A stretch of 64,000 bases of DNA from Eubacteriales bacterium. Lineage in GTDB: Bacteria > Bacillota > Clostridia > Oscillospirales > UMGS1783. The position numbers and the translations under genes were made by a program. Below are positions 6,256-26,070 of the stretch, in pieces. Each line of letters opens with the position of its first letter. Position 1 is the first letter of the stretch. The notes below the pieces were generated by a model. It worked only from the letters and a program-made list of their open reading frames with translations. It was not told the origin of the DNA and did not search any database. The stretch is taken from assembly GCA_045541395.1 (NCBI GenBank), contig JAZQIZ010000001.1, forward strand, positions 213,233-277,232, in the 5' to 3' direction.

Positions 6256-6283
6256 GGACCGCAATTATTTGCGGTCCTTTTTT
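6256..6283 (+). terminator. rho-independent terminator of gap
   Basis: Stem ggaccgc / gcggtcc followed by TTTTTT. Confidence 0.8.
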
Positions 6284-6340: not shown

Positions 6341-6371
6341 CTGGTTTGGTATTTTAGAAACTGGTATACCT
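6341..6371 (+). promoter_or_regulatory. candidate GntR/FadR-type operator half-sites
   Basis: CTGGTTTGGTAT plus CTGGTATACC, which contains the 8-bp palindrome GGTATACC at 6363-6370. These resemble the TGGT-N-ACCA cores of FadR-subfamily operators. The site lies ~50 nt upstream of the -35, so the call is weak. Confidence 0.2.
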
Positions 6372-6419
6372 TAAAACCATATAACAATAAATGTTTTATA
6401 AAAACCGATTATTTAACTG

Positions 6420-6448
6420 TTGAAATAGGAGTTGTATACTGATATAAT
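6420..6448 (+). promoter_or_regulatory. sigma-A type promoter of the GntR regulator gene
   Basis: TTGAAA, a 17-nt spacer, then TATAAT. Confidence 0.55.
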
Positions 6449-6484
6449 CAAGTTGTAATATTGTGTACCAAAAAGGAGAAACCT

Positions 6485-7174
6485 ATGTTACAGCCAGTAA
6501 AGAAATCCCGTTTATCAAGTGAAGTAATAGATCAGATATCTCAGTCTATTTTGAAAGGCGATTATAAGCCGGGACATAAACTTCCGCCTGAGCGTGAAAT
6601 TGCAAATCAGCTTGGGGTTAGCCGTACTGTTGTAAGAGAAGCTCTTCGTTCTCTGGAAATTATGGGGCTTGTTGAATCTCAAGTTGGCGGAGGTACTTAC
6701 GTTAAGGAATATACAGCTGAGCACGTATTGGATCCAATTGCTAATTATTTTTCATCAGATGATTGTTTTGTTGATGAAATCGTTGAAACCCGTTTATTGC
6801 TCGAGCCTGAAATGGTGAAGCTTGCGGCTCAAAGAGCAACCGAAGATGATATTGCTCTTATTGAAAATACTATTAAGCAAATGGAGGATGAGCTTGCTTC
6901 CGGTCTTTCAGGTATTAACGGTGATACTGCATTTCATTTTGCGCTTGCAAGTGCAGCTCATAACAGCGCAATTTTAAAGATTCTTTCTGTAATTGCAGAT
7001 CTTCTTCATTATAATATGAAAGCTTCTTTGCAGGCTGTTCCTGATCAGGGAATTACCATTCAGGGTCACAAGCGCATTTTACAGGCCCTTAAGGAAAAGA
7101 ATCCTGAACTTGCTAAGCGCTATATGATAGAACATCTTGAAATCAGTTTTTCAAGAATTAAGGGTAAGAACTAA
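6485..7174 (+). CDS. GntR-family transcriptional regulator, FadR subfamily (LldR/PdhR/GlcC-like, FCD domain)
   Basis: N-terminal winged HTH (LPPEREIANQLGVSRTVVREALRSLE) and a C-terminal all-helical FCD-like domain. AAGGAGA RBS precedes the ATG at 6485, so the listed upstream start at 6461 is unlikely. Confidence 0.85.
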   Translation: MLQPVKKSRLSSEVIDQISQSILKGDYKPGHKLPPEREIANQLGVSRTVVREALRSLEIMGLVESQVGGGTYVKEYTAEHVLDPIANYFSSDDCFVDEIVETRLLLEPEMVKLAAQRATEDDIALIENTIKQMEDELASGLSGINGDTAFHFALASAAHNSAILKILSVIADLLHYNMKASLQAVPDQGITIQGHKRILQALKEKNPELAKRYMIEHLEISFSRIKGKN

Positions 7175-7206
7175 ATTTGTTTTCCAATTAAGAGGCTGTG
7201 ATTATT

Positions 7207-7234
7207 TTGTCATAGTCTCCTAATCGCGTATATA
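7207..7234 (+). promoter_or_regulatory. candidate internal promoter ahead of the aldehyde dehydrogenase gene
   Basis: TTGTCA, a 16-nt spacer, then TATATA, in the 93-nt gap between the regulator and the first enzyme gene. Confidence 0.3.
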
Positions 7235-7267
7235 AATAATTTATTATATCTAATGGAGGAAAGTGTT

Positions 7268-8629
7268 ATGGACGCTAAGGAAAAAATTTCTGTATTAATT
7301 GAGAAGGCTAAAGTCGCTCAGAAGCAGTTCGAAAGCTTTAACCAGGAACAGGTTGATGCATGCGTAAAGGCAATCGCAAAGGTTGTTTACGACAATGCTG
7401 AAATGTTCGCTAAGATGGCTGTCGAAGAAACCAGAATGGGCGTATACGAGGATAAGATCAAGAAGAACCTCGGTAAGTCTAAGGTTATCTGGAACAACCT
7501 CAAGACTAAGAAGTCTGTTGGTATTATTGAAACTGATGAAGAAACAGGTATTACACTTGTTGCTCGTCCTGTAGGTATAGTTGGTGCTATCACTCCTTGC
7601 ACTAACCCCATCGTTACTCCCATGTGCAACGCTATGTTTGCTTTCAAGGGCAGAAACGCTATTATTATTGCTCCGCATCCCAGAGCTAAGAAGTGCACAG
7701 CTGAAATCAAGAGACTTTTTGATGAAGCTCTCGCAAAAGTTGGCGCTCCCGAAAATATCTTCCAGTATGTTGAAGATTGCCGTGTTGAGGATTCTGCTGA
7801 ACTTATGAAGGAAGTTGACGTTGTTGTTGCTACCGGCGGTATGGGTATGGTTAAGGCAGCTTACTCTTCCGGTAAGCCTGCATACGGCGTTGGCGCTGGT
7901 AACGTTCAGGGTATTATTGATGATGATGTTGATATCGCATTTGCAGTATCCAACCAGATCGAATCCCGTAAGTTTGATAATGGTATTATCTGCTCCGGTG
8001 ACCAGACTTGTATTGCTCCTGCATCTAAGTATGATGAAATCATGGCTGAATTTGTTAAGCAGGGCTGCGTATTTGTTAACGATGCTGAAACCAGAGAAAA
8101 GCTTGTTAACGCTATATTCCCCGGCGGTGTTATGAATAAGGATCTCGTTGGTCAGTCTACTGCTAAGATCGCTGAAGCTGCTGGCATTGAAATTCCTGAA
8201 GGCACTAAGGTTATTCTTATTGAAGCTGAAGGTTATGGCGCCGGTCACCTTCTTTCCAAGGAAAAGATGTGTCCCGTTATGTCTACTTATAAGTATGACA
8301 CATTCGAAGAAGCTGTTGCTATTGCACAGGCTAACCTCGAAGTTGAAGGCCGTGGCCATTCTTGCGGCATTCAGTCCAACAACGAAGAACATCTTCTCTA
8401 TGCAGGTGAAAAGCTTGAAGTTGCCCGCGTAGTTGTAAACCAGATCTGTTCTACCTCCAACGGTGGTGCTTTCACTAACGGTCTTGCTCCTACAACAACT
8501 CTTGGCTGCTGCTCTTGGGGTAATAACTCCATTTCCGAGAACTTCGACTATAAGTTCCTTATCAACTACATCAGAGTTGCACGTCGCATCTCCAGACCTA
8601 TTCCTACCGATGAAGAAATGTGGGGTTAA
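7268..8629 (+). CDS. CoA-acylating aldehyde dehydrogenase, closest in pattern to Clostridium kluyveri SucD (succinate-semialdehyde dehydrogenase, acylating)
   Basis: It tracks the recalled C. kluyveri SucD sequence over its full length: LIEKAKVAQK, VVYDNAEMFAK.AVEET.MGVYEDK, TNP.VTPMCNAM, YDNGIICS, KEKMCPV...YDTFEEAV.IA.AN, TTTLGC.SWG.NSISEN, EE.WG at the C-terminus. GGAGGA RBS precedes the ATG at 7268. Confidence 0.8.
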   Translation: MDAKEKISVLIEKAKVAQKQFESFNQEQVDACVKAIAKVVYDNAEMFAKMAVEETRMGVYEDKIKKNLGKSKVIWNNLKTKKSVGIIETDEETGITLVARPVGIVGAITPCTNPIVTPMCNAMFAFKGRNAIIIAPHPRAKKCTAEIKRLFDEALAKVGAPENIFQYVEDCRVEDSAELMKEVDVVVATGGMGMVKAAYSSGKPAYGVGAGNVQGIIDDDVDIAFAVSNQIESRKFDNGIICSGDQTCIAPASKYDEIMAEFVKQGCVFVNDAETREKLVNAIFPGGVMNKDLVGQSTAKIAEAAGIEIPEGTKVILIEAEGYGAGHLLSKEKMCPVMSTYKYDTFEEAVAIAQANLEVEGRGHSCGIQSNNEEHLLYAGEKLEVARVVVNQICSTSNGGAFTNGLAPTTTLGCCSWGNNSISENFDYKFLINYIRVARRISRPIPTDEEMWG

Positions 8630-8636
8630 TTGAATT

Positions 8637-9800
8637 ATGGATTTAATGGAATTTAAAGCGAGAGAACTGTTTGAAATGGCAGGCCTGCCCGTTAAAAAGG
8701 GTGTAGTAGGCGAAACCGTTGAAGAATTAGTTGCCGCAATTGAAGCAAACAAAGAAATTACTTTTCCTTTAGTATGTAAAGCTCAGGTTCAGGTTGGTGG
8801 CCGCGGTAAAGCAGGCGGTATTAAAATGGCTGATAATATGGATCAGCTTAAGGAAGTTGCAGGCCAGATCCTTGGTATGGATATTAAGGGTCACATCGTA
8901 AAGCGTCTTATGGCTGTTGAAAAGGCAGAAATCACTAAAGAATTCTATCTTTCTATTATGCTTGACAGACTTACAAAGTGCCCCCTCGTTATCTTCTCTA
9001 CTCAGGGTGGTATGGATATCGAAGAAGTTTCTAAGACTACTCCCGAACTTATTCATAAAATACCTGTTAATCCTCTTTCCGGCATGACCAAAGAAGTTAC
9101 TTCTGACCTTGCTCAGAAAGCAGGCGTTGAAGGTAAAACTGCTGAACAGTTTGAAGAAGTTCTTGTTAAACTTTATGACTTCTTTATGGCGCGTGACTGT
9201 ATGCTCGCAGAAATCAACCCCTTAGCTATCGATTGCGAAGGCAATATCCTCGCTCTCGACGGTAAGGTTTCTGTTGACGACAGCGCTCTTTACAGACAGC
9301 CCGAAGTTGCAGAATTCAAGAAGAGCCTTGAAAAGGATGAGGATGAACTCATTAAAGAAGCTCGTGACTGGAATTTCCTTTACATTCCTTGTGATTCCAA
9401 GGGTACTATTGCTGTTTCCAGTAACGGTTCCGGTATGCTTATGTCTTGTATGGACAGAATCCATGACAATGGCATGGTAGTATACGCTGGTCTTGACTTA
9501 GGTGGCGGCGCAACTGCTGAAAAGATTAAAGAAGCTATCCGTATCATCTCTACTGGTGATCAGGTTAAGGCTATCTTCATCAACATCTTCGGCGGCATCA
9601 CCAGATGCGACGAAGTTGCAGGCGGTGTTAGACTTGCTAAGGAAACCTATGGTATTGATAAGCCTATCGTTATCAGATTCGAAGGCACTAACAAAGACAA
9701 GGGTCTTGAAATCATTCAGGGTCTTGACAATGTTATCTATGCAGACGGCCTTATTCAGGGCGTTGAGGAACTCGTTAAAAGGAGAGATCAGTTAGTATGA
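8637..9800 (+). CDS. sucC: ADP-forming succinate--CoA ligase beta subunit-like (ATP-grasp)
   Basis: It has the SucC pattern M.L.E...K.LF, KAQV..GGRGKAGGIK, EINPL, LDGK...DD.AL.RQP and NIFGGITRCD. The loop equivalent to IGCMVNGAGLAM is divergent (IAVSSNGSGMLM), so the acyl substrate is not certain. Confidence 0.8.
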   Translation: MDLMEFKARELFEMAGLPVKKGVVGETVEELVAAIEANKEITFPLVCKAQVQVGGRGKAGGIKMADNMDQLKEVAGQILGMDIKGHIVKRLMAVEKAEITKEFYLSIMLDRLTKCPLVIFSTQGGMDIEEVSKTTPELIHKIPVNPLSGMTKEVTSDLAQKAGVEGKTAEQFEEVLVKLYDFFMARDCMLAEINPLAIDCEGNILALDGKVSVDDSALYRQPEVAEFKKSLEKDEDELIKEARDWNFLYIPCDSKGTIAVSSNGSGMLMSCMDRIHDNGMVVYAGLDLGGGATAEKIKEAIRIISTGDQVKAIFINIFGGITRCDEVAGGVRLAKETYGIDKPIVIRFEGTNKDKGLEIIQGLDNVIYADGLIQGVEELVKRRDQLV

Positions 9801-10675
9801 GTATTATGATTGATAAAGATACCCGTCTTATTGTACAGGGTATGACCGGTCGTGAAGGTTCCTTCCACACCGAACAGATGCTTGCTTATGGCACTAATGT
9901 TGTTGCAGGCGTAACCCCCGGCAAGGGCGGTCAGGAATTATTTGGTATTCCTGTTTTTAATACTGTAAAAGAAGCTATGGAAGCTACAAATGCTAACGCA
10001 TCTGTAATCTTCGTTCCTGCAAAATTCTCTAAGGCTAGTATCGTTGAAGCCATCGAAGCAGGCGTCCCCAATATTTTCACTATTGCTGAACACGTTCCTG
10101 TTCACGATATGATGTATGTATATCATCTTGCAAGACAGAAGGGTGTTCGCGTTGTTGGTCCTAACTCCTTCGGCGTAATTTCTCCCGGCAAGACCAAGGC
10201 TGGTTTTATGTCTCATAAGATGTTTATGCCCGGTCCTGTAGGTCTTATGTCTCGTTCTGCTACCAACTGCTATGAAACCGTTCTTATGCTTACTCAGGCA
10301 GGCATAGGTCAGAGCACATGTGTTGGTGTTGGCGGCGATATGATCCCCGGTTCTACTTTTATGGACGTTCTTCCTCTCTTTGAAGAAGATCCCGAAACCA
10401 AGGTTGTTATTATGATTGGTGAAATTGGCGGTAACGAGGAAGAACTTGTTGCTGAATATCTTAAGAAGAACGGTATGAAGAAGCCCGTAGTTGCACTTAT
10501 CGCTGGTAAGAACGCTCCTAAGGGCAGAAGTATGGGTCATGCTGGCGCTATCGTTTCTGCTGACGGTACCGGTTCTGCTGAAAACAAGGAAAAGGTTCTT
10601 AAGGAAGCCGGCGTTATTATCGCTGAAACCACTACTCATATCGTAGGTATAGTAAACGAACTTCTTAACAAGTAA
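9797..10675 (+). CDS. sucD: succinate--CoA ligase alpha subunit-like
   Basis: [12 protein letters not shown] CoA-binding motif and the phosphohistidine loop SMGHAGAIV. It overlaps the beta subunit gene by 4 nt. Confidence 0.85.
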
Positions 10676-10698
10676 TTATATTCGGAGGTGTATATATA

Positions 10699-11667
10699 AT
10701 GACTAAACAGCAATACTTAGACACTCTCCTTATGATGTATAAAATCAGAGATTTCGAAATGACTGCCGTTAGATTCTTCGAGCAGAATATTCTCAGAGGT
10801 TCTGTACATCTTTGCGTGGGTGAAGAAGCTGGCCCTGCTACAATGGCTAACTTCATTACAGATAACGACTATATCACATCTACTCACCGTGGTCACGGTC
10901 ACTGCATCGCTAAGGGTGCCAGACTTGACAGAGCCATGTGCGAATTGATGGGTAAGAATGACGGTTATTGCAACGGTCGTTCCGGTTCTATGCATATCGC
11001 TGACTTTGAAAAGGGTAACTTAGGCGCAAACGCTATCGTTGGCGGCGGCTATCCTATCGCTGTTGGCGCTGGTCTTGGTATCAAGATGCAGGGCAGAAAT
11101 GACGTTGTAGTATGCTGGAGTGGTGACTCTGCTACTAACGAAGGTACTTTCCATGAAGCACTCAATATGGCTGCTATCTGGAAGCTCCCCGTTATTTTCG
11201 TAGTTGAAAACAACCTTTACGGTATTTCTGTTCCTCAGTGGCAGTCTACTTCCGTTAAGGATCTTTCTGTACGTGCTAAGTCCTACAATATGCCCGGTGT
11301 TACCGTAGACGGCAACGATGTTGTTGCTCTTGCTAAGGTATTCGAAAAGGCAGTTAAGGATTGCCGTGCAGGTAAAGGCCCCATCCTTATTGAAACTAAG
11401 ACTTACCGTTGGCTCGGTCACTGGACCGGCGACCCCACACCTTACAGAACTAAGGAAGAGGTTGAAGAATGGAAGGCTAAGTGCCCCATCAAGCGTTTGC
11501 GTGAATACCTTATCGCTGAACAGGGCTGCACTGAAGAAGAGCTCAATGCTATTGAAAAGGCTGCTGAGGAAGAAATGGCAGCAGCTGCTGAATATGCTCT
11601 CAATGCTCCCGAGCCTGATCCCGCATTCGTTATGAACGATGTATTTTATGAGGGAGGTAACGAATAA
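10699..11667 (+). CDS. TPP-dependent dehydrogenase E1 alpha subunit, acetoin/pyruvate type
   Basis: TSTHRGHGHCIAKG and GSMHIAD..KGNLGANAIVGGG, as recalled for AcoA-type E1 alpha. TPP motif GDSATNEGTFHEALNMA...VVENN. GGAGGTG RBS. Confidence 0.85.
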   Translation: MTKQQYLDTLLMMYKIRDFEMTAVRFFEQNILRGSVHLCVGEEAGPATMANFITDNDYITSTHRGHGHCIAKGARLDRAMCELMGKNDGYCNGRSGSMHIADFEKGNLGANAIVGGGYPIAVGAGLGIKMQGRNDVVVCWSGDSATNEGTFHEALNMAAIWKLPVIFVVENNLYGISVPQWQSTSVKDLSVRAKSYNMPGVTVDGNDVVALAKVFEKAVKDCRAGKGPILIETKTYRWLGHWTGDPTPYRTKEEVEEWKAKCPIKRLREYLIAEQGCTEEELNAIEKAAEEEMAAAAEYALNAPEPDPAFVMNDVFYEGGNE

Positions 11668-12650
11668 TGAGTAGAAAAACTTATGCAATGGCTATAAGAG
11701 ATGTCATCGCTGAAGAAATGCGCAGAGACGAACGCGTATTCGTAATGGGCGAAGATATCGAAGTTCTTGGCGGTATTTTTGGCTGCACAAGAGGTCTTGC
11801 TGATGAATTCGGCGTAGACAGAGTTAGAAACACTCCCATTTCCGAAGCAGGCTTCGTAGGTGCCGGTCTTGGTGCTGCTTGCGTTGGTATGCGTCCTATC
11901 GTTGAACTTATGTATTTTGACTTTGCGCTTGTTGCTGCTGACCAGATCATCAACCAGGTTGCAAAGACCAGATATGTATTTGGTGGTAAGGCTAGAATTC
12001 CCCTCGTAATCAGAGGTCAGCAGGGTGTTGGCCGTGGTAACGCTGCTACACACTCTCAGTCTTTAGAAGCAATCTTTATGCATTTCCCCGGCTTAAAGCT
12101 GGTTATGCCTTCTACTCCTGATGATGCCGCAGGTCTTCTCCGTACTGCTATCAGAGATGATAACCCTGTTATTTTCATCGAACATAAGGCTCTTTATGTC
12201 AACAAGGGTGAAGTTAATGACGATCCCGATTATTGTATTCCTTTCGGCAAGGCTAAGATCGCCAGAGAAGGTAAGGATGTAACTGTTGTTGCAACTCATA
12301 CTTACGTTCAAAAAGCAATCAATGTTGCTGAAAAGCTTGAAAAAGAAATGGGTATCAGCGTTGAAGTTATCGACCCCAGAACTCTCGTTCCTCTCGATAT
12401 GGATACCATTGAAGCATCCGTTAAGAAGACCGGCCGTGCTGTAGTTGTTCACGAAGCACATAAGGTTTGCGGTATTGGTGCTGAGCTTGCTTCTCAGATC
12501 TCTGAAAGAACCTTTAAGTATCTTGATGCTCCTGTTGAACGTCTTGGTGCTAAGGCTTGTCCTCTGCCTTTCAACCTTGGTCTTGAAAACGCAGTTGTTC
12601 CTCAGGAACAGGATATCTACGACGCAATTAAAAGAACTCTGTATAAATAA
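11667..12650 (+). CDS. 2-oxoacid/acetoin dehydrogenase E1 beta subunit
   Basis: Transketolase-like pyrimidine-binding and C-terminal domains (VFVMGEDI, NTPISEAGFVGAG.GAA, VVVHEA). TAATG overlap with E1 alpha. Confidence 0.88.
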   Translation: MSRKTYAMAIRDVIAEEMRRDERVFVMGEDIEVLGGIFGCTRGLADEFGVDRVRNTPISEAGFVGAGLGAACVGMRPIVELMYFDFALVAADQIINQVAKTRYVFGGKARIPLVIRGQQGVGRGNAATHSQSLEAIFMHFPGLKLVMPSTPDDAAGLLRTAIRDDNPVIFIEHKALYVNKGEVNDDPDYCIPFGKAKIAREGKDVTVVATHTYVQKAINVAEKLEKEMGISVEVIDPRTLVPLDMDTIEASVKKTGRAVVVHEAHKVCGIGAELASQISERTFKYLDAPVERLGAKACPLPFNLGLENAVVPQEQDIYDAIKRTLYK

Positions 12651-12668
12651 TTAAGGAGGCGAAGTAAA

Positions 12669-14645
12669 ATGGCTTCTACTATTATAATGCCTAAACAGGG
12701 CCTCCAGATGACAGAAGGTACTATTATTAAGTGGTTAAAGAAGGAAGGCGAATCCGTTAAGGAAGGCGAACCTTTGTTTGAAATGGAAACCGATAAGCTC
12801 ACCATTACTATGGACTCCACTGCAACCGGTACTCTTCTTAAAATAGTAAAGGGCGAAGGCGAAGTTGTTCCCATCACTGAAGTTATTGCTTATGTTGGTG
12901 AACCAGGCGAAGCTATTCCCGGCGCTGAAGCTCCTGCAGCTGCTCCTGCTCCTGCGGTTGATCCTAGCTCTATTAATGCAAGCATAGTTATTATGCCTAA
13001 GCAGGGCTTACAGATGACCGAAGGCACTATCATTAAGTGGCTCAAAAAAGAAGGCGAAACTGTTAAAGAAGGCGAACCCTTATTTGAAATGGAAACTGAT
13101 AAACTTACCATCACTATGGATTCAACTGCTACAGGTACTGTACTGAAGCTTATCCGTGCTGAAGGTGAAGTTGTTCCCATTACTGAACCTATCGCAGTTA
13201 TCGGTGAACCCGGTACTGACATTGGTCCTCTTCTCGGTGAAGCTCCCGCAGCTCCTGCTGCAGCTCCCGTAGAAGCTGCTCCTGCGGTTGATCTTAGCTC
13301 CATTAAGGCTAGTGTTATTATTATGCCTAAACAGGGCTTACAGATGACTGAAGGTACTATCATTAAATGGCTTAAGAAGGAAGGCGAAACTGTTAAAGAA
13401 GGCGAACCTCTCTTCGAAATGGAAACCGACAAGCTTACTATCACTATGGACTCTACCGCTACAGGTACCGTACTTAAGATAGTTCGCGGCGAAGGTGAAG
13501 TAGTACCTATTACTGAACCTATTGCTGTTGTTGGTGAACCCGGCACTGATTATGCTCCTCTTCTTGGTACAGCTCCCGCTGCTGCACCCGCTGCAACTCC
13601 TGCTGCTCCTGCAGTTACGGCATCTGCTGCTCCTGCAGCTCCTGCAGTAAAGCGTGCTCCCGGTGAAAAGGTATTTGCTACTCCCAGAGCTAAGTGGAGA
13701 GCAGAAGAGAAGGGTATTGCTATTGAAGCAGTAGCTGGTACCGGCCCTGACGGTCTTATTATTGAGAGAGACGTTCTTAACACTGACGTAACCGCAATTA
13801 AGGCTTCTCCTGTTGCTAAGAAGCTTGCTGAGCTCAATGGTGTTGATCTGTCCACTATTACCGGCACCGGCGCTAACGGCAAGATCATGAAGGGCGACGT
13901 TCTTGGCACCAACGCTCCTAAGGAAGAAGTTGTTGCTGAAGTTGCTGCTCCTGTTGCTGTTCAGGCTGAGCATAAGGAAACTATCATTCCCTTTACCGGC
14001 ATGAGAAAGGCTATTGCTAACAACATGATGAAGAGCCTTGAAACTATGGCTCAGGCTAACCACCGTATGAAGGTAGATATGTCTGAATCCGTTCGTTTCA
14101 GAAGCAAACTTAAGGCTGCAGATATCAAGGTATCCTATACTGATATCCTTGTTAAGGCTGTTGCTCACGCACTCATCAAGTATCCTGCTATGAACGCTTG
14201 TGTTGATGGCAATAACATTATTCAGAAGCATTATGTAAATATGGGCATTGCTGTTGCTATTGAAAACGGTCTTATCGTTCCCAATATCAAGGACGCTCAT
14301 CTTAAGTCCGTTGTTGATATCCACGGTGAAGTTGCTTCCTTAGCTAAGAAGGCTAGAGAAGGCAAGCTTACCAGAGATGAATACACCAGCGGTACATTTA
14401 CAATCACCAATCTTGGTATGTATGACATCGATGATTTCACACCCGTTATCAATCCTCCTGAGGTTGGTATCTTAGGTGTTGGTACCATCAAGGATACACC
14501 TGTTGTAGAAAACGGCGAAATTGTTGTTCGTCCTATAATGACTCTGTCTCTTACTTATGACCACAGAGTTATAGACGGCGCACCTGCAGCTGAATTCTTA
14601 CAGTATATCAAGACTCTGCTTCAGAATCCCTATCTGATGATGTAA
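12669..14645 (+). CDS. dihydrolipoamide acyltransferase E2 with three lipoyl domains, two subunit-binding domains and a catalytic domain
   Basis: Three copies of the METDKLT lipoyl-lysine motif, Ala/Pro linkers and two GTG..G.I...DV PSBD-like segments. The catalytic motif is DHRVIDGA. Confidence 0.92.
   Translation: MASTIIMPKQGLQMTEGTIIKWLKKEGESVKEGEPLFEMETDKLTITMDSTATGTLLKIVKGEGEVVPITEVIAYVGEPGEAIPGAEAPAAAPAPAVDPSSINASIVIMPKQGLQMTEGTIIKWLKKEGETVKEGEPLFEMETDKLTITMDSTATGTVLKLIRAEGEVVPITEPIAVIGEPGTDIGPLLGEAPAAPAAAPVEAAPAVDLSSIKASVIIMPKQGLQMTEGTIIKWLKKEGETVKEGEPLFEMETDKLTITMDSTATGTVLKIVRGEGEVVPITEPIAVVGEPGTDYAPLLGTAPAAAPAATPAAPAVTASAAPAAPAVKRAPGEKVFATPRAKWRAEEKGIAIEAVAGTGPDGLIIERDVLNTDVTAIKASPVAKKLAELNGVDLSTITGTGANGKIMKGDVLGTNAPKEEVVAEVAAPVAVQAEHKETIIPFTGMRKAIANNMMKSLETMAQANHRMKVDMSESVRFRSKLKAADIKVSYTDILVKAVAHALIKYPAMNACVDGNNIIQKHYVNMGIAVAIENGLIVPNIKDAHLKSVVDIHGEVASLAKKAREGKLTRDEYTSGTFTITNLGMYDIDDFTPVINPPEVGILGVGTIKDTPVVENGEIVVRPIMTLSLTYDHRVIDGAPAAEFLQYIKTLLQNPYLMM
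12672..13545 (+). repeat. three tandem lipoyl-domain coding repeats inside E2
   Basis: The ATGCCTAA(A/G)CAGGG anchor recurs at 12687, 12993 and 13323, giving periods of 306 and 330 nt. The encoded domains are about 90 percent identical but differ at many synonymous sites. Confidence 0.9.
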
Positions 14646-14661
14646 TTTAATCTAAAAAGAA

Positions 14662-14688
14662 GGGCGTGTAGCATTTTGTTACACGCCC
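14662..14688 (+). other. intercistronic GC-rich stem-loop between E2 and E3, with no U-tract
   Basis: Perfect 9-bp stem gggcgtgta / tacacgccc with a 9-nt loop. It is followed by taagacaat rather than a T-run. Confidence 0.5.
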
Positions 14689-14720
14689 TAAGACAATAAT
14701 CCATAAAGGAGTAATTTAAA

Positions 14721-16115
14721 ATGGCTAATCAGTTCGAAGTAGCTGTTATTGGCGGTGGCCCCGGCGGTTACGTTGCCGCAATTGCCAGCGCACAGCTCGG
14801 TATGAAAACCGTACTTATCGAAAAAGATTCCCTCGGTGGCACTTGCCTAAACCGTGGTTGCATTCCTACTAAAGCTCTTTTACATTCTGCTGAAGTTTAT
14901 ACCAGCGCTAAAGAAGCTGAAGAATACGGTGTACTTACTTCCGGCGTAGCATTTGATTATGCTAAGGTTGCCGCTCGTAAAGATGCTGTTGTTTCCCGTC
15001 TCGTAAGAGGTATTGAAGGTCTTGTTAGAGGTAACAAGGTTACTCTTATTCGCGGCACAGGCGTTTTTAAGAACGCTAATACTATAGAAGTTACCGGTCA
15101 GGAACCTCAGACCGTTACTTTTGATAAAGCTATTATTGCTACTGGTTCTTATCCTGCAAGAATTCCTATTCCCGGTACCGATCTTCCCGGTGTTATGAAC
15201 TCCGATGGTTTCCTTGCTCTTCAGGAACTTCCTAAGTCTGCTGTTGTTATTGGCGGCGGCGTTATTGGTATTGAATTTGCTTCTGTTATGAACGCATTTG
15301 GTACTGATGTTTCTATTATTGAAATGATGACAGAAATTCTTCCCGGTCAGGATGCTGAAATCTGTGCTTCTATGAGAAAGATACTTGAAAAGAAGGGCGT
15401 TCGCTTCCACCTCGGTTCCAAGGTTGTTGGTATTACCAAGGAAGACGGTCTTACCGTTACCTTTGAACAGGACGGCAAGACTCAGACAGAGAAGGGTGAA
15501 ATCGTTATCCTTTCTGCCGGCAGAAGACCTATGTCTCAGGATCTTGGTTTTGAAGCTGTTGGTATTAAGATGGAAAGAGGCTTTGTTCAGGTTAATGAAT
15601 ATTGCCAGACTAACATTCCAAACATTTATGCTATCGGTGATGTTAACGGTAAAGTAATGCTTGCTCATGCTGCTTCTCATCAGGGTATGGTAGCTGTACA
15701 TAACTGTAAGCACGGTAACTCCAAGAAAGCCGATTTTGAACTTGTTCCCGGTTGTGTATATACTACTCCCGAGATAGCCAGTGTTGGTCTTACTGAAGAA
15801 AAAGCTAAGGCTAAGGGTTATGCTGTTAAGGTTGGTAAGTTTGCTGCATCCGGCAACGGTAAGTCCCTTGTTATGGGTGAAACCGAAGGTTTTGTTAAGA
15901 TCGTTTCCGAAGAAAAGACCGGCGAAATCTTAGGTATGCAGTTATTCTGCGGTCATGCTACCGATATGATCGGTGAAGGTCTTGCAGCTATTAAGCTCGA
16001 AAGCACTGTAGAAGAAATTGCTGATGCTATCCATCCTCATCCCACAGTAAATGAAATGATCATGGAAGCTGCTCATATGATTCAGGGCCACTGTGCTCAC
16101 AGCATTAAGAGATAA
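14721..16115 (+). CDS. lpdA: dihydrolipoyl dehydrogenase E3
   Basis: GGGPGGY FAD motif, redox disulfide GTCLNRGCIPTK, and a C-terminal HPHPT dimerisation/His-Glu motif. Confidence 0.93.
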   Translation: MANQFEVAVIGGGPGGYVAAIASAQLGMKTVLIEKDSLGGTCLNRGCIPTKALLHSAEVYTSAKEAEEYGVLTSGVAFDYAKVAARKDAVVSRLVRGIEGLVRGNKVTLIRGTGVFKNANTIEVTGQEPQTVTFDKAIIATGSYPARIPIPGTDLPGVMNSDGFLALQELPKSAVVIGGGVIGIEFASVMNAFGTDVSIIEMMTEILPGQDAEICASMRKILEKKGVRFHLGSKVVGITKEDGLTVTFEQDGKTQTEKGEIVILSAGRRPMSQDLGFEAVGIKMERGFVQVNEYCQTNIPNIYAIGDVNGKVMLAHAASHQGMVAVHNCKHGNSKKADFELVPGCVYTTPEIASVGLTEEKAKAKGYAVKVGKFAASGNGKSLVMGETEGFVKIVSEEKTGEILGMQLFCGHATDMIGEGLAAIKLESTVEEIADAIHPHPTVNEMIMEAAHMIQGHCAHSIKR

Positions 16116-16136
16116 CGTAAGCACAGGAGGTTTACT

Positions 16137-17384
16137 ATGAATTTTGAGTTAGGTTATAGCAAATCTACCGTTAAATTCGAAATAGATGATAAAAACCTTG
16201 CTACTGTTATTAATCCCAATCCTGTAGACGTTCAGGTTGGCGGCAGAGCAGAAGTAAAGAGAAGCCTTGAAAATCCTATCGGTGCTGACAGACTTTCTAA
16301 AATTGTAAAGCCCGGTGAATCTATTGTTATTATAACCAGTGATATTACTCGTCCTGTTCCCAGTTATGATGTTATTCCTCCAATTCTGGATGAGCTTCAG
16401 CTTGCAGGTGTGGACGACAAGGATATTACTGTTGTATTTGCTCTTGGTTCTCATCGTTGCCATACTGAAGAAGAAAAGATTAAGCTTGTAGGTGAAGAGG
16501 TTTATAACAGAGTTAAGTGTATAGACTGCGATCCTAAGGATTCTATCCGCGTTGGTACTTCCAGTGTTGGTACTCCTTACGATGTATTCTCTGTCGTTGC
16601 TAAGGCAGATAGAGTTATTTGTGTTGGCAATATTGAGTTCCATTATTTTGCAGGTTATTCCGGCGGCGCAAAGGCAATTATGCCCGGAGTATGCACTCGT
16701 GATGCTATTCAATCTAATCATTCTATGATGATAAGACCTGAAGCAGCTACCGGTCAGATAGAAGGTAATCCTGTTCGTGCAGATATCGATGAGATCGGTA
16801 AGTTCCAGCGTATTGACTATATTGTTAACGTTGTTCTTGATGCTCATAAGAAGATCCTTAAGAGCTATGCAGGTCATTATATTGATGCACACAGAGCAGG
16901 CTGTGCTTTCCTTGATACCTTATATAAGGTTGAAATTGAGGAAAAGGCAGATATCGTAATTGTATCTGTTGGCGGTTATCCTAAAGACCTTAACCTTTAT
17001 CAGGCTCAGAAGGGTCTTGATAATGCTAAGTTTGCAGTTAAGGATGGCGGTGTTATAATTGTTTCCGCATCTTGCAAAGAAGGCTTAGGTGAGCACGTAT
17101 TTGAAAAATGGATGCTCGAATATTCCCCGGAGGAAAGACTTGAAAACATTCAGAAGGATTTCCAGTTAGGAGGACATAAAGCAGCGGCTATTGCCATGGT
17201 ATTGGAAAAAGCTGATATTTATCTTGTAAGTGATCTTACAGATGAATTTGTTAACAGCATTTATCTGAAGCCCTATCATTCTGTTGATGAAGCAATGGAA
17301 GCTGCATACGCAAAATGCGGCAAGGACGCAAAGGTTATTGTTATGCCTTATGCCGGTTCTACCGTTCCTGTTGTAAAAAAATAA
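16137..17384 (+). CDS. larA: nickel-pincer-cofactor-dependent 2-hydroxyacid racemase, LarA family (probable lactate racemase)
   Basis: It tracks the recalled L. plantarum LarA: NPIG, SDITRPVP (Arg75 equivalent), LGSHR (His108), EFHYFAGYSGGAK (His174, Lys184), SNHS (His200) and NLYQAQKG (Gln295, Lys298). AGGAGG RBS. Confidence 0.85.
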   Translation: MNFELGYSKSTVKFEIDDKNLATVINPNPVDVQVGGRAEVKRSLENPIGADRLSKIVKPGESIVIITSDITRPVPSYDVIPPILDELQLAGVDDKDITVVFALGSHRCHTEEEKIKLVGEEVYNRVKCIDCDPKDSIRVGTSSVGTPYDVFSVVAKADRVICVGNIEFHYFAGYSGGAKAIMPGVCTRDAIQSNHSMMIRPEAATGQIEGNPVRADIDEIGKFQRIDYIVNVVLDAHKKILKSYAGHYIDAHRAGCAFLDTLYKVEIEEKADIVIVSVGGYPKDLNLYQAQKGLDNAKFAVKDGGVIIVSASCKEGLGEHVFEKWMLEYSPEERLENIQKDFQLGGHKAAAIAMVLEKADIYLVSDLTDEFVNSIYLKPYHSVDEAMEAAYAKCGKDAKVIVMPYAGSTVPVVKK

Positions 17385-17391
17385 AAAATAT

Positions 17392-17417
17392 ACGGCATTG
17401 CATTATTGCAATGCCGT
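17392..17417. terminator. bidirectional terminator closing the operon and the convergent ytvI
   Basis: Stem acggcattgca / tgcaatgccgt with a 4-nt loop, A-run before and T-rich tract after. Confidence 0.8.
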
Positions 17418-18512: not shown

Positions 18513-18857
18513 ATGAAAAAATTTTTAATAGGTGTACTTACAGGATTTATTAACGGACTAATGGGCGGCGGCGCAGGGCTTGTCTGCGTACCACTCTTAA
18601 GCAAAATATATAATGATACAAAAATGGTTCATGCATATACTGTTGCCACTGTATTATCTGCCACTATTGTTAGCGCAATTGTGTATTGGTTAAAAGGGAA
18701 TCTTCAATTAACTGACGCCAAGAATTTTATTATTGGCGGAGCATTGGCAGCACCGATAGGAGTATTATTGCTCAAAAAAATAAACTCAAAATTTTTAAAA
18801 AAGGTGTTCGCAATTTTTTTAATTTACAGTGCTATAAGGATGATGATAAATGCTTGA
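18513..18857 (+). CDS. TSUP (TauE/SafE) family transporter, half-size subunit 1
   Basis: 114 aa with about 4 TM segments and an N-terminal GLMGGGAG motif typical of one TSUP repeat unit. Confidence 0.7.
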   Translation: MKKFLIGVLTGFINGLMGGGAGLVCVPLLSKIYNDTKMVHAYTVATVLSATIVSAIVYWLKGNLQLTDAKNFIIGGALAAPIGVLLLKKINSKFLKKVFAIFLIYSAIRMMINA

Positions 18858-19194
18858 TACTATTGCTGCTTTTATTGCCGGTATTTTAAGCAGTATGGGT
18901 TTAGGCGGAGGAACTATCCTGCTATTATACTTGACAATATTTCAAAATATAAATCAAACAGATGCCTCAGGTATTAATCTAATTTACTATATTCCTTGCG
19001 CCTTGATTGCCACTGTTTTATATTTAAAAAACAAAATAATAGCCGGAAAAGATATTGTAACTATCTCTTCCGGCGCTTTAATCGGAGCCGCATCAGGCGC
19101 ATTAACCGTTGGACTGATCTCACCAAATATTCTTAGGATCATATTTTCAATATATATATTGATAACAGGAATATATCAATTATTCAAAGGATAA
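18850..19194 (+). CDS. TSUP (TauE/SafE) family transporter, half-size subunit 2
   Basis: 114 aa with about 4 TM segments and the motif SMGLGGGT. Its ATG overlaps the subunit 1 stop (ATGCTTGA). Confidence 0.7.
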   Translation: MLDTIAAFIAGILSSMGLGGGTILLLYLTIFQNINQTDASGINLIYYIPCALIATVLYLKNKIIAGKDIVTISSGALIGAASGALTVGLISPNILRIIFSIYILITGIYQLFKG

Positions 19195-25098: not shown

Positions 25099-26070
25099 AT
25101 GGACAAATATAAGTATAATGATGTTTCAGAGCTTATTAGAAACTATCTTATATATATGGAAACAATTAAAGGAAAATCTTCGCGTACAGTTTATGAATAT
25201 TATTTAGATCTTCGTACATTCTTTCGATATATTAAACGCTATAAATGTTTAGTTCCGTCTTCTGTAGAATTTAATGATATTTTAATTAATGATGTTGATA
25301 TAAAGTTAATTGAATCTATTTCACTGTCGGACGTATACTCTTTTCTTGATTATGTATTAACTCAGCGTTCCAATGCATCTTCTGCCAGAGCCAGAAAAAT
25401 TTCATGTCTTAGAAGTTTTTTTAAGTATTTACATAAAAAAGTATTTCTTATTAAGGAAAATCCTATTGCAGAATTAGACTCACCTAAAATAAAAAAATCA
25501 TTACCAAAATATTTAGTTCTTGACGAAGCTATTGAACTATTAAAAGCAGTTGATGGTAAAAACAAACAAAGAGATTTTGCAATTATTACCATATTCTTAA
25601 ATTGTGGCATTCGTTTATCTGAGCTCGTTGGAATTAACCTTAACAGTATAAAGAATTCTTATTTAACGGTTCTGGGCAAAGGAAATAAAGAAAGAACCGT
25701 ATATTTAAATGAAGCCTGTACTTACGCAATTAACGAGTATTTAAAGGTTCGCCCCAAACCAAGGCCTGAAGATAAAAATGCAATGTTTATAAGCAATCGT
25801 GGCACTCGCTTAAGTCATGAATCGGTTCAATATCTTGTAAAAAAATATATTGTTAAAGCAGGACTTGATCCCGAAAAGTATTCTGTACACAAATTAAGAC
25901 ATACAGCTGCAACGTTAATGTACCAAAACGGTGTTGATGTGCGCGTTTTGCAAGAAATTTTAGGCCATACAAGCCTTGCAACTACTCAGATTTACACTCA
26001 CCTTTCCGGCTCCGAATTACAAGATGCTGCAAATAAAAACCCATTAAATAAAGTAAATATTAAAGAATAA
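25099..26070 (+). CDS. tyrosine recombinase, XerC/XerD family
   Basis: Catalytic residues are present: R in GIRLSEL, HKLRHTAAT, and LGHTSLATTQIYTH with the nucleophile Tyr. Confidence 0.85.
   Translation: MDKYKYNDVSELIRNYLIYMETIKGKSSRTVYEYYLDLRTFFRYIKRYKCLVPSSVEFNDILINDVDIKLIESISLSDVYSFLDYVLTQRSNASSARARKISCLRSFFKYLHKKVFLIKENPIAELDSPKIKKSLPKYLVLDEAIELLKAVDGKNKQRDFAIITIFLNCGIRLSELVGINLNSIKNSYLTVLGKGNKERTVYLNEACTYAINEYLKVRPKPRPEDKNAMFISNRGTRLSHESVQYLVKKYIVKAGLDPEKYSVHKLRHTAATLMYQNGVDVRVLQEILGHTSLATTQIYTHLSGSELQDAANKNPLNKVNIKE

Follow-up and report, generated by a model that had tools for sequence, protein, structure and literature searches.

A conserved clostridial gene block predicted to join an acetoin-dehydrogenase-like complex to ATP formation and malate racemization

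Nine co-directional genes on the forward strand (6485-17384) of a 64,000-nucleotide stretch of the Eubacteriales bacterium assembly GCA_045541395.1 (contig JAZQIZ010000001.1, positions 213,233 to 277,232; hereafter 'the window') raise the question of why a regulator, a coenzyme A (CoA)-acylating aldehyde dehydrogenase (ALDH), a two-subunit ligase of the SucCD type, a lipoate-dependent dehydrogenase complex (E1 alpha, E1 beta, E2 and E3) and a racemase should be encoded together. The enzyme families are all known; their combination, two subfamily signatures and the implied pathway lack description in searchable papers. A preliminary description of the locus had stated that no described pathway uses all of these modules, and we likewise found no description of the cluster in the published literature, the nearest matches being synthetic pathways, the carnitine route of Acinetobacter baumannii and sulfonate modules. 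We propose that the block is a regulated catabolic operon that would make malate from an aldehyde-acid and form ATP at substrate level, and that it unites a putative Aco-type cleavage system, an ATP module that takes aldehydes to acids, and a malate racemase.

Recurrence of the block in other genomes

For a comparative view, 79 species-level GTDB loci were fetched with the ALDH as anchor, and the nine window proteins plus malic enzyme (ME) were mapped onto each. The order ALDH-SucC-SucD recurs in 23 of these 79 loci as well as in further contigs from other assemblies, so that the neighbourhood, which the preliminary description had treated as a composite unit, is indeed conserved in relatives. 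Among the ALDH-SucC-SucD loci, a malate racemase (Mar) is present in 14 of the 15 that are long enough for judgement, malic enzyme in 12, and E1ab-E2(-E3) follows directly downstream in 11. Carriers span the Oscillospiraceae, Christensenellaceae, Lachnospiraceae and Clostridiaceae and show several gene orders. The window shares its arrangement, [GntR][ME]-ALDH-SucCD-E1a-E1b-E2-E3-Mar, with Christensenellaceae, with metagenome-assembled genomes (MAGs) of Eubacteriales and Bacillota, and with Faecousia and Robinsoniella; a second arrangement, TAL_FSA-like protein-Mar-ALDH-SucCD-[ME], is found in Lachnospiraceae, and a third, ME-Mar-ALDH-SucCD, in Clostridiaceae.

A 96%-identical copy of the block with the flanks seen in the window occurs in an assembly from a sequencing run (L001), and the nearest relatives of the window block come from a Eubacteriales MAG and Faecousia sp. 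(Oscillospiraceae), each with 85% ALDH identity. Three other loci (L003-L005), whose ALDH is 69% identical, keep the block order and add a malic enzyme of 390 amino acids (aa) between regulator and ALDH; their flanks, nrdDG and mecA at one end and a GNAT gene with pheS at the opposite end, are unrelated to those of the window. Because gene order is kept elsewhere with other flanks and at 57-90% protein identity, the arrangement lies far beyond chance. In a contig collection, single protein variants of the block have index entries in 134 and 424 blocks, and several carriers come from gut samples. The block is also present in cultured strains, including Christensenella (C. hongkongensis), Robinsoniella sp., bacterium 1XD21-13 and Lachnospiraceae, while no copy was found in a plasmid collection.

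Subfamily signatures of the enzymes

The ALDH (7268-8629, forward strand; 453 aa) is of the SucD, or succinyl-CoA reductase, type. It is most like the Clostridium kluyveri enzyme CkSucD, as the preliminary description had held (57% identity; PDB 8CEI), and its best NCBIfam models are acylating enzymes, with SauS as the second-best (419 bits against a cutoff of 600). In CkSucD, the nucleophile is Cys242, the distal carboxylate is bound by Lys70 and Ser243, the pocket is shaped by Lys70, Ser243 and Thr395, and efficiency with most other CoA esters is 2% or less (PMC10249356). All four residues are kept in the window ALDH; across the block-linked ALDHs, Lys70 and Cys242 are found in 23/23 and Ser243 and Thr395 in 21/23 each. 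At the same time, these proteins share a signature of their own, with Cys330 replaced by Ser and Phe341 by Tyr in 23/23 and with a pocket loop whose usual sequence is NQ(I/V)C(S/A)T(M/N/S)(N/A)GG, as opposed to the typical N(A/Q)PS(S/A)TTAGG of classical enzymes. From these residues we infer a substrate of the C4-dicarboxylate type, not simply a succinyl compound.

A neighbour-joining tree places most block-linked ALDHs in a clade apart from SucD proteins linked to 4hbD, with three exceptions: a 4hbD-linked protein (L080) falls inside the block clade, and two block-linked ones (L049 and L057) fall outside it. The other 56 of the 79 loci have a classical SucD context with an ALDH of 55-63% identity. 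In 40 of these 56, a 4hbD-like Fe-dependent alcohol dehydrogenase adjoins the ALDH, and a CoA transferase of the acetyl-CoA hydrolase family, an AbfD-like HpaB-family protein and a sigma54 regulator also occur; genes for 4hbD, the CoA transferase and 4-hydroxybutyryl-CoA dehydratase are absent from the window and from block-type loci. Ten classical loci carry 2-oxoacid:ferredoxin oxidoreductase genes directly upstream of SucD. In L015, L020, L024, L029, L031, L043, L048, L051 and L054 (~7500-10000), three oxidoreductase genes lie between AbfD/AbfT and SucD-4hbD, and these loci look like a fermentation cluster leading from 2-oxoglutarate via 4-hydroxybutyrate to crotonyl-CoA.

The ligase, of the ADP-forming SucCD type by Pfam and NCBIfam, consists of an ATP-grasp beta subunit (8637-9800, forward strand) and a CoA-binding, phosphohistidine-bearing alpha subunit (9797-10675, forward strand). 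The alpha subunit scores 385 bits against a cutoff of 336, and the beta subunit 390 against 370 on NF001913 and 361 against 375.55 on TIGR01016. On NF010647, the model for the malate-CoA ligase subunit MtkA, the beta subunit reaches 268 bits against a cutoff of 604, a shortfall that lowers the claim that the enzyme is an Mtk, not the claim that it can use malate. The window SucC is 39-40% identical to its counterparts from Escherichia coli and Thermus. The alpha subunit keeps the MGHAGA phosphohistidine loop, and all 20 block-linked copies read SRSATNCYE where solved structures of succinyl-CoA synthetase (SCS) read SRSGTLTYE; the two invariant changes, Leu to Asn and Thr to Cys, adjoin the kept carboxylate-binding Tyr. 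The beta subunit reads SNGSGM(L/I/M)M in 20/20 block-linked copies, as against the canonical NGAGLAM, and keeps GIT. In pig SCS, the C4 carboxylate of succinate contacts alpha Tyr167 and the backbone of a beta Gly-Ile-Val, while the sulfonate ligase HpfYZ has a His in place of that alpha Tyr (HpfZ His160) and Gly-Ile-Asn in beta (HpfY Asn312) (PMC11489063). The block ligase has the alpha Tyr and, like Thermus SCS, a beta Gly-Ile-Thr, and is therefore not a ligase of the HpfYZ type. Judged by these motifs, it is a distinct SucCD subfamily with a polar Asn and Cys beside the predicted carboxylate-binding Tyr.

The last gene (16137-17384, forward strand) encodes a homologue of the malate racemases that require a nickel-pincer nucleotide (NPN), within the LarAH6/Mar2 family. 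It scores 565 bits against a cutoff of 500 on NF052593 and 368 against 460 on the lactate racemase model, so that the LarA racemase of the preliminary description stands as a LarA homologue, with malate rather than lactate as the matching substrate. The protein is 52% identical to Mar2 (PDB 6D6Z). Its catalytic residues (Asp, two His and Lys), the Arg, Lys and His that bind NPN and the His-Lys signature at the positions of LarA W358/T359 are all kept; D71, H108, H171, K294, R74, K181, H197, H350 and K351 are found in the window protein and in 17 further block-linked homologues. A survey from 2024 describes the His-Lys pair as the signature of malate racemases (MARs) and the residue after the catalytic His-Tyr as variable among them. 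After the second catalytic His, all 18 block-linked proteins have His-Tyr-Phe as against the His-Tyr-Lys of Mar2. Malate racemases are described as the largest group of the LarA superfamily, with a role in vivo that the literature calls an open question (PMC7583248, PMC11770544). A genomic context table published for LarAH6 in 2020 lists malic enzyme (15%) and unrelated COGs, with no entries for SucCD, ALDH or E1. None of larB, larC and larE was seen among the window open reading frames (ORFs) scanned, and an exact-sequence look-up of the window racemase gave no match.

The lipoate-dependent complex is encoded by four forward-strand genes: an acetoin-dehydrogenase-like, thiamine pyrophosphate (TPP)-dependent E1 alpha of the heterotetrameric type (10699-11667; Pfam, NCBIfam and motif comparison), E1 beta (11667-12650; Pfam and NCBIfam), a dihydrolipoyl acyltransferase E2 of 658 aa (12669-14645; Biotin_lipoyl three times, E3_binding in two stretches, 2-oxoacid_dh with 288 bits) and a dihydrolipoyl dehydrogenase E3 (14721-16115; TIGR01350, 556 bits, cutoff 409). 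E1 alpha stays under both cutoffs for the E1 alpha of pyruvate dehydrogenase (PDH), with 340 against 393.85 bits on TIGR03182 and 247 against 411.35 on TIGR03181. E1 beta reaches 380 bits against 321 on a PDH-complex subfamily model, E2 scores 438.7 against 445 on a PDH-complex model and 378.8 against 378.65 on the SucB model, and E3 passes a generic lipoamide dehydrogenase model.

The closest solved relative of E1 alpha is the human PDH E1 alpha (PDHA1; 37% identity). Matches in the plasmid collection, found on Enterococcus plasmids, are closer, with 47.8% identity according to tblastn and 47% when aligned, and the Enterococcus comparator operon, with a sigma54-dependent regulator, lpdA, E1a, E1b and E2, has acetoin-operon architecture. 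The motif STHRGHGHCIAKG, in which the preliminary description had seen an AcoA flavour, is common to the window protein and this aco-type E1 alpha letter for letter, unlike in human PDH E1 alpha; both bacterial proteins further have ITSTHRGHGHCIAKG and GSMHIAD..G.LGAN, where human PDHA1 has AYRAHGFTFTRG and GSMHM--YAKNFYGGN. The scan of window ORFs revealed no sigma54 activator beside the block, the regulator being of the GntR/FCD type. Lipoate-dependent acetoin cleavage is established in strict anaerobes, in which NAD-linked 2-oxoacid complexes are unusual.

To what extent this E1 belongs with the rest of the block can be judged from 120 close E1 alpha homologues that were collected and for part of which contexts were inspected. 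At 65% identity or more, every inspected context has ALDH-SucCD adjacent or about 10 kb away. Adjacency is found in Robinsoniella (L087), in L092 and in L090/L091, the latter pair without a racemase; in the Lachnospiraceae loci L085, L086, L088 and L089, E1a-E1b-E2 with a GntR gene of its own lies about 10 kb from an operon of TAL-like protein, Mar, ALDH, SucCD and ME. Five E1 alpha and five ALDH matches agree in the length of their longest contig, a sign that they probably come from the same contigs. In contrast, 79 metagenome loci anchored on E1 alpha relatives of 41-55% identity contain no ALDH-SucCD. As at least seven loci have the complex without malic enzyme, the E1 subfamily is tied to ALDH-SucCD more tightly than to malic enzyme. 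By identity and gene context, the E1 alpha relatives at or above 65% are best described as a subfamily of their own.

The E2 proteins vary in their number of lipoyl domains: the window E2 has three, that of L003 (15383-17050; 555 aa) has two, and those of Robinsoniella (L087, 11968-13284) and Lachnospiraceae (for instance L085, 11971-13158) have one in 395-438 aa. An ORF of the Lachnospiraceae loci that had been listed as a 395-aa unknown is this E2, beside which the Lachnospiraceae copies have no E3 gene. A distant E1 alpha/beta pair (47% identity) without E2 is found in L142 (596-13871), next to a split transketolase and three short-chain dehydrogenases/reductases (SDRs); also beside it are genes for a Zn-dependent dehydrogenase and a small cupin, as well as for a sugar-binding protein with 71% identity to that of the Lachnospiraceae loci.

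A candidate route to malate and its alternatives

Gene content, operon architecture, conservation of the unit, family and clade assignments and the conserved ligand residues can be read directly from the loci. For the direction of flux, the identity of the aldehyde, the position of the complex upstream rather than downstream of the other enzymes and the mode of regulation, we infer the following scheme. Cleavage by E1ab-E2-E3 of an alpha-hydroxyketone with a carboxylate tail, R-CO-CH(OH)-R'-COO-, would give R-CO-CoA and NADH together with a C4 carboxy-aldehyde, for which malate semialdehyde is the likeliest identity. The substrate would most likely be a keto-(deoxy)sugar acid formed by dehydrogenases that are encoded next to the block in relatives. 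The SucD-type ALDH would then oxidize the aldehyde to its CoA thioester, malyl-CoA, from which the SucCD-type ligase, running in the ATP-forming direction, would yield (D-)malate. The malate racemase would convert (D-)malate to L-malate, and the malic enzyme encoded in the same operon in many relatives would take L-malate to pyruvate; in the window organism, malic enzyme would have to be encoded elsewhere.

We put the probability of this full chain, from Aco-like cleavage through a C4 carboxy-aldehyde, malyl-CoA and D-malate with ATP to L-malate, at roughly 40%. Its core is predicted with more confidence: it is likely that the block is a single conserved operon whose ALDH, ligase and malate racemase work one after another. 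Characterized precedents for this core are HpfX/HpfYZ and SqwD/SqwKL, pairs of ALDH and ligase that oxidize an aldehyde to its acid and make ATP, and the demonstrated route of A. baumannii from malic semialdehyde through D-malate to pyruvate; taken with the racemase and malic enzyme, they make the sequence C4 carboxy-aldehyde, malyl-CoA, D-malate with ATP, L-malate and pyruvate the simplest one. The wider claim, namely that many anaerobic Clostridia have recruited a lipoate complex for a keto-(deoxy)sugar acid or hydroxyketone acid, with a new SucCD subfamily and an NPN racemase as obligatory link, is more tentative than the chain itself. An Aco-type role for the complex is favoured because of the aco motifs of E1 alpha, the tie to ALDH-SucCD, the lack of any other candidate for C-C cleavage in some operons and the precedent of acetoin cleavage in strict anaerobes. 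Of the three readings offered by the preliminary description, the one that combined cleavage of acetoin or another hydroxyketone with an ADP-forming ligase is the best supported, except that plain acetoin is unlikely as a substrate, because ALDH and ligase keep their distal-carboxylate ligands and malic enzyme joins the block in relatives. A second reading, a route for C4-dicarboxylates and 2-hydroxyacids, captures the other half of the picture.

With regard to the substrate, 2-deoxy- or 3-deoxy-5-keto-hexonate would chemically give malate semialdehyde, and 2-deoxy-5-keto-D-gluconate would lead to D-malate by stereochemical reasoning alone. A fully hydroxylated 5-keto-aldonate would instead give tartrate semialdehyde, and a tartrate product is conceivable because MAR enzymes have a side activity on tartrate.

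The genes that accompany the block in relatives are suggestive in this respect. Several loci add an SDR for which a generic 'glucose 1-dehydrogenase' subfamily model is the only one passed, a Zn-dependent dehydrogenase that matches Tdh and IolM equally (~200 bits, well under cutoff), an MBL-fold hydrolase, DUF4432, a small cupin, LacI regulators and sugar-type or Tct transporters, and Lachnospiraceae add a TAL_FSA-like protein of 458 aa together with a PfkB/class II aldolase pair. In L012, L058 and L087, sugar-type dehydrogenases, the MBL-fold hydrolase and DUF4432 lie in the block operon or directly beside it; since these loci have no aldolase or dehydratase, the complex is their sole candidate for C-C cleavage. 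With front ends that vary and a back end that stays constant, the loci resemble a funnel for a single shared aldehyde. Attempts to name the upstream substrate from the accessory genes failed on generic or below-cutoff model matches: PfkB and the class II aldolase do not reach the IolC and IolJ equivalogs, the small cupin is not recognizable as KdgF, and DUF4432 does no more than resemble a hypothetical aldose epimerase. None of the relatives' accessory genes is present in the window.

Two further observations concern these surroundings. In the Clostridiaceae loci L057 (19-7331) and L049, the stretch directly upstream of ME-Mar-ALDH-SucCD codes for a TRAP permease and a second NPN-dependent isomerase, which falls in group 22 with 454 bits; for two dehydratases, one UxaA/GarD-like with two subunits and the other of the IlvD/Edd type; and for a protein above the cutoff of the gamma-aminobutyric acid (GABA) transaminase equivalog. 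GH36 (melibiase-family) genes lie beside the block in the unrelated loci L087 (16948-19119) and L090 (1-5580), one of them encoding a dockerin-bearing protein of 2253 aa.

Several points weigh against the proposed chain. The placement of E1 alpha in the Aco clade would follow from motifs and from 47% identity to a cluster that is aco-like by gene organization only. L049 and L057 carry ME-Mar-ALDH-SucCD with no complex within 10 kb, so that their aldehyde must come from another source, the adjacent gene encoding a GABA-type aminotransferase; conversely, L076 and L090/L091 have the complex and ALDH-SucCD with no racemase nearby. Without a dehydratase, a fully hydroxylated sugar acid gives tartrate rather than malate semialdehyde, and the fate of the second acyl-CoA is left unexplained by the chain. 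The window ORFs scanned include neither a transporter nor a dehydrogenase or malic enzyme that could serve the pathway. Finally, the oxidoreductase upstream of classical SucD supplies an acyl-CoA, and this analogy favours a scheme centred on such an ester.

The alternative that survives best retains the route from malate semialdehyde, here produced elsewhere, via malyl-CoA and D-malate (with ATP) to L-malate and pyruvate and places the complex last, as an NAD-linked PDH that makes acetyl-CoA. All enzymes would then perform family-typical reactions, and the 12 loci whose operon includes malic enzyme, the E1 beta and E3 scores above PDH-complex and lipoamide dehydrogenase cutoffs with E2 just under, the PdhR/LldR-like similarity of the regulator and the Clostridiaceae loci that function without the complex would all fit. 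Such an order of events is nevertheless unlikely in view of E1 alpha, which fails the PDH E1 alpha equivalogs and has motifs of the aco rather than the PDH type. Moreover, the complex strictly co-occurs with ALDH-SucCD, often without malic enzyme or racemase, and the operons of L012, L058 and L087 hold nothing else able to cleave the presumed sugar-derived precursor. Strict anaerobes normally oxidize pyruvate in a ferredoxin-dependent manner, which also counts against this order. The remaining reading of the preliminary description, oxidation of lactate or pyruvate, finds little support.

Slightly less probable is a scheme in which the three enzyme sets meet at one CoA ester. Here, the complex would be a 2-oxoacid dehydrogenase that converts 4-hydroxy-2-oxoglutarate to malyl-CoA or 2-oxoglutarate to succinyl-CoA, the ligase would make ATP, the ALDH would serve as a reductive redox valve of a bifurcated fermentation, and racemase and malic enzyme would handle malate. 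The ten classical loci with an oxidoreductase directly upstream of SucD point this way, as do the succinate-CoA ligase cutoffs passed by the alpha and, marginally, the beta subunit, and HpfD/HpfXYZ offer a documented case in which an aldehyde is both oxidized and reduced in a bifurcated manner. However, E1 alpha belongs to an aco-like group, while to our knowledge the known 2-oxoglutarate dehydrogenases have a single-chain E1o. In L049 and L057, the ALDH-ligase-racemase core has no complex within 10 kb, which agrees better with an aldehyde as the input, and the window block has no aldehyde-reducing alcohol dehydrogenase. Of the two substrates, 4-hydroxy-2-oxoglutarate would explain racemase and malic enzyme, which 2-oxoglutarate leaves unexplained.

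It is improbable that the block is a chance assembly of ordinary modules, with SucD and SucCD serving GABA, 4-hydroxybutyrate or succinate metabolism beside an unrelated dehydrogenase complex and malate racemase. Such a view could draw on the 57% identity and identical ligand residues of ALDH and CkSucD, on SucCD scores above NCBIfam succinate-CoA ligase cutoffs (for beta, NF001913 only) and on the GABA-transaminase-equivalog protein upstream of the core in L057 and L049. Yet, it would have to accommodate co-occurrence in one operon over four families and in several gene orders, the grouping of block ALDHs apart from 4hbD-linked SucD (three exceptions aside) and the invariant signatures of ALDH and ligase; in addition, a succinate-to-malate link is impossible anaerobically without a high-potential acceptor. 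A plain PDH combined with the SucCD of the tricarboxylic acid cycle was down-weighted on the E1 alpha cutoffs, the motifs and the strict co-occurrence.

Catabolism of plain acetoin or 2,3-butanediol is very improbable. The complex would cleave acetoin to acetyl-CoA and acetaldehyde, the ALDH would form acetyl-CoA and the ligase acetate and ATP, for which Pelobacter is a precedent; the aco-type motifs of E1 alpha would fit, and the SDR and Zn-dependent dehydrogenases that adjoin the block in relatives have some likeness to butanediol dehydrogenases (217 bits against 270 on the BudC model). Against this stand the kept carboxylate-binding Lys70 and Ser243, given the 2% ceiling on the efficiency of CkSucD with most other CoA esters, and a regulator of the GntR type rather than a sigma54 activator of the AcoR type. 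We know of no SucCD-type ligase for acetate, and racemase, malic enzyme, sugar ABC transporters, LacI regulators and DUF4432 would go unexplained.

Least probable of all is a sulfonate pathway, in which sulfolactaldehyde, 3-sulfopropionaldehyde or sulfoacetaldehyde would be converted via a sulfo-acyl-CoA to the acid and ATP with the LarA homologue as a sulfolactate racemase: despite the same two enzyme families in HpfXYZ and SqwD/KL, SauS as second-best match of the ALDH, TauE-family ORFs about 1 kb downstream and, in L057, a two-subunit UxaA-like dehydratase whose architecture we take to resemble SuyAB, we rejected it because the HpfYZ signature (alpha His, beta GIN) is absent in favour of Tyr and GIT, SauS stays under its cutoff, TauE does not recur beside the block and the association with malic enzyme points to genuine malate.

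Transcription unit, surroundings and known systems

The preliminary description had placed the nine co-directional genes between two terminators, and ORFs, profile searches and a terminator scan bear this out; its identification of the modules is likewise right by Pfam and NCBIfam. Two starts in the ORF listing, which spans 6461-17384, lie too far upstream. The GntR gene starts at ATG 6485 behind an AGGAGA ribosome-binding site (RBS) and not at TTG 6461, and the ALDH gene at ATG 7268 behind GGAGG and not at 7253; the resulting lengths of 229 and 453 aa agree with homologues. From ALDH to racemase, the intergenic distances are 7, -4, 23, -1, 18, 75 and 21 nt, preceded by a GntR-ALDH spacer of 93 nt. 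A good RBS had been claimed for each enzyme gene: GGAG-type sites are clear at most block start codons and weak upstream of SucC.

The 5′ boundary is formed by the intrinsic terminator of the glyceraldehyde-3-phosphate dehydrogenase (GAPDH) gene gap (forward strand, 6256-6277 by pattern scan and 6256-6283 in the preliminary description), with a 9-bp stem containing 6 GC pairs followed by TTTTTTGTGA. A candidate sigma70-type promoter lies at 6420-6448 (forward strand; TTGAAA, 17 nt, TATAAT, with a TG extended -10) and, with 11/12 matches, is the best of a 14-kb scan. At the 3′ boundary, a bidirectional intrinsic terminator (17392-17417, both strands; 11-bp stem, T-runs on either strand) is shared with a convergent gene for an AI-2E transporter. 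Terminator-like matches within the block have weaker stems and lie mostly inside coding sequence, and the overall number from the pattern scan is at chance level (11 found, 10.8 expected). Spacing, RBSs, the single strong promoter and the flanking terminators indicate that the nine genes are one transcription unit.

The first gene (6485-7174, forward strand; 229 aa) encodes a GntR/FCD transcription regulator (Pfam GntR 83.5 bits, FCD 96 bits), which would probably repress the single promoter until an acid effector binds. It had been assigned to the lactate/pyruvate/glycolate-sensing group of FadR-type regulators; membership of the FadR subfamily holds by profile, and no specific orthologue can be named, as the best NCBIfam equivalogs, NanR, LldR, PdhR and GlcC, give 110-141 bits against cutoffs of 260-330. 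Two palindromes with a GTATAC core are candidate GntR-family operators: GGTATACC at 6362-6373 and TGTATACT at 6431-6442, the latter in the promoter spacer and ending just 5′ of the -10 hexamer. Both fall in the 202-nt leader, compared with a window density of 0.23 per kb. Three similar palindromes are found in the GntR/ME spacer of L056, and none in the other loci checked, so the proposed operator fits the window and L056 alone and is a weak lead. The spacer between GntR and ALDH could fold into a stable 11-bp hairpin (7192-7219, forward strand; minimum free energy -21.7 kcal/mol, z = -3.2), whose outer stem pairs UUUUCC with the ALDH RBS and which, lacking a U-tract, is not a canonical terminator.

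Beyond gap upstream and the convergent AI-2E-family transporter gene downstream, the remaining window genes are housekeeping genes, including ligA, prfA, tgt, queA, asd, dapA, lepA, polA and dnaX. The block differs from these surroundings in base composition: its genes have a G+C content of 0.43-0.47 (GntR 0.39, Mar 0.40) against 0.28-0.36 in most flanking genes, and G+C at third codon positions is 0.33-0.43 from ALDH through E3 (7268-16115) and 0.56 in the GntR gene against 0.21-0.26 in most flanking housekeeping genes. This contrast and the unrelated flanks in L003 suggest that the block is mobile between genomes as an island.

Elsewhere in the window, two adjacent 114-aa ORFs (18513-18857 and 18850-19194, forward strand), each matching one half of the TauE/SafE anion-exporter family, sit just past the AI-2E transporter gene and do not recur beside the block in other loci. 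Convergent tyrosine-recombinase (Phage_integrase) genes at 25099-26070 (forward) and 26093-26995 (reverse) have otherwise housekeeping surroundings, and an 838-aa ORF (47009-49525, forward strand) matches no Pfam family at E <= 1e-6.

If the proposed chain is true, it would provide the first defined physiological role for malate racemases, the largest group of LarA homologues, and it would extend the ATP module of acylating ALDH and SucCD-like ligase from sulfonates to a carboxylate substrate. The predicted operon sets a malate racemase in a conserved and testable pathway context and suggests a substrate class for acetoin-dehydrogenase-like complexes of strict anaerobes. The block, which is often met in metagenome and sequencing-run assemblies, likely reflects an unrecognized gut carbon source, and its occurrence in cultured strains makes genetics and growth tests feasible. 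Current annotation would call the genes PDH, succinyl-CoA synthetase and lactate racemase, which probably misleads metabolic models.

Among known systems, anaerobic acetoin degraders such as Pelobacter carbinolicus and Clostridium magnum combine AcoABCL with an acylating acetaldehyde dehydrogenase. The block resembles AcoABCL in its TPP-dependent E1 alpha/beta heterotetramer, lipoyl E2, E3 and E1 alpha motifs shared with an aco-type operon, and it would follow the same logic, in which a hydroxyketone is cleaved to an acyl-CoA and an aldehyde that undergoes CoA-acylating oxidation. It differs in having a GntR/FCD regulator instead of the sigma54-dependent AcoR, a SucD-like ALDH with a carboxylate pocket, a SucCD-type ligase rather than Pta-Ack for ATP formation and a malate racemase with or without malic enzyme, and its E1 alpha is 47% identical to the aco-type comparator.

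With the SucD pathway of C. kluyveri and C. difficile, which leads from succinyl-CoA via succinate semialdehyde and 4-hydroxybutyrate to crotonyl-CoA, the block shares the catalytic Cys and the carboxylate ligands of the ALDH; it lacks 4hbD, AbfT/Cat2 and AbfD, and its ALDH is partnered by an ADP-forming ligase in place of a CoA transferase. Mar2 of Thermoanaerobacterium thermosaccharolyticum (PMC7583248) agrees with the block racemase in family model and catalytic residues and differs from it in the His-Tyr-Phe loop. The same pairing of an acylating ALDH of the SSADH/SucD type with an adjacent SucCD-homologous, ADP-forming ligase is found in anaerobic Firmicutes, where HpfX/HpfYZ of Enterococcus gilvus converts 3-sulfopropionaldehyde to 3-sulfopropionate with ATP formation and SqwD/SqwKL does so from sulfoacetaldehyde to sulfoacetate (PMC11489063), whereas the block has no glycyl-radical or sulfoglycolysis context and has links to a lipoate complex and to a malate racemase.

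The lower part of the L-carnitine pathway in A. baumannii leads from malic semialdehyde via D-malate to pyruvate and needs an extra enzyme because the malate is in the D-configuration (PMC11353897). Both routes would thus take a C4 aldehyde-acid to D-malate, use a dedicated step into central metabolism and end in pyruvate and CO2. A. baumannii, however, is an aerobe that obtains the aldehyde from a Rieske oxygenase, makes no ATP on this route because its dehydrogenase is non-acylating, and employs a D-malate-specific decarboxylating dehydrogenase in place of the racemase and malic enzyme of the block.

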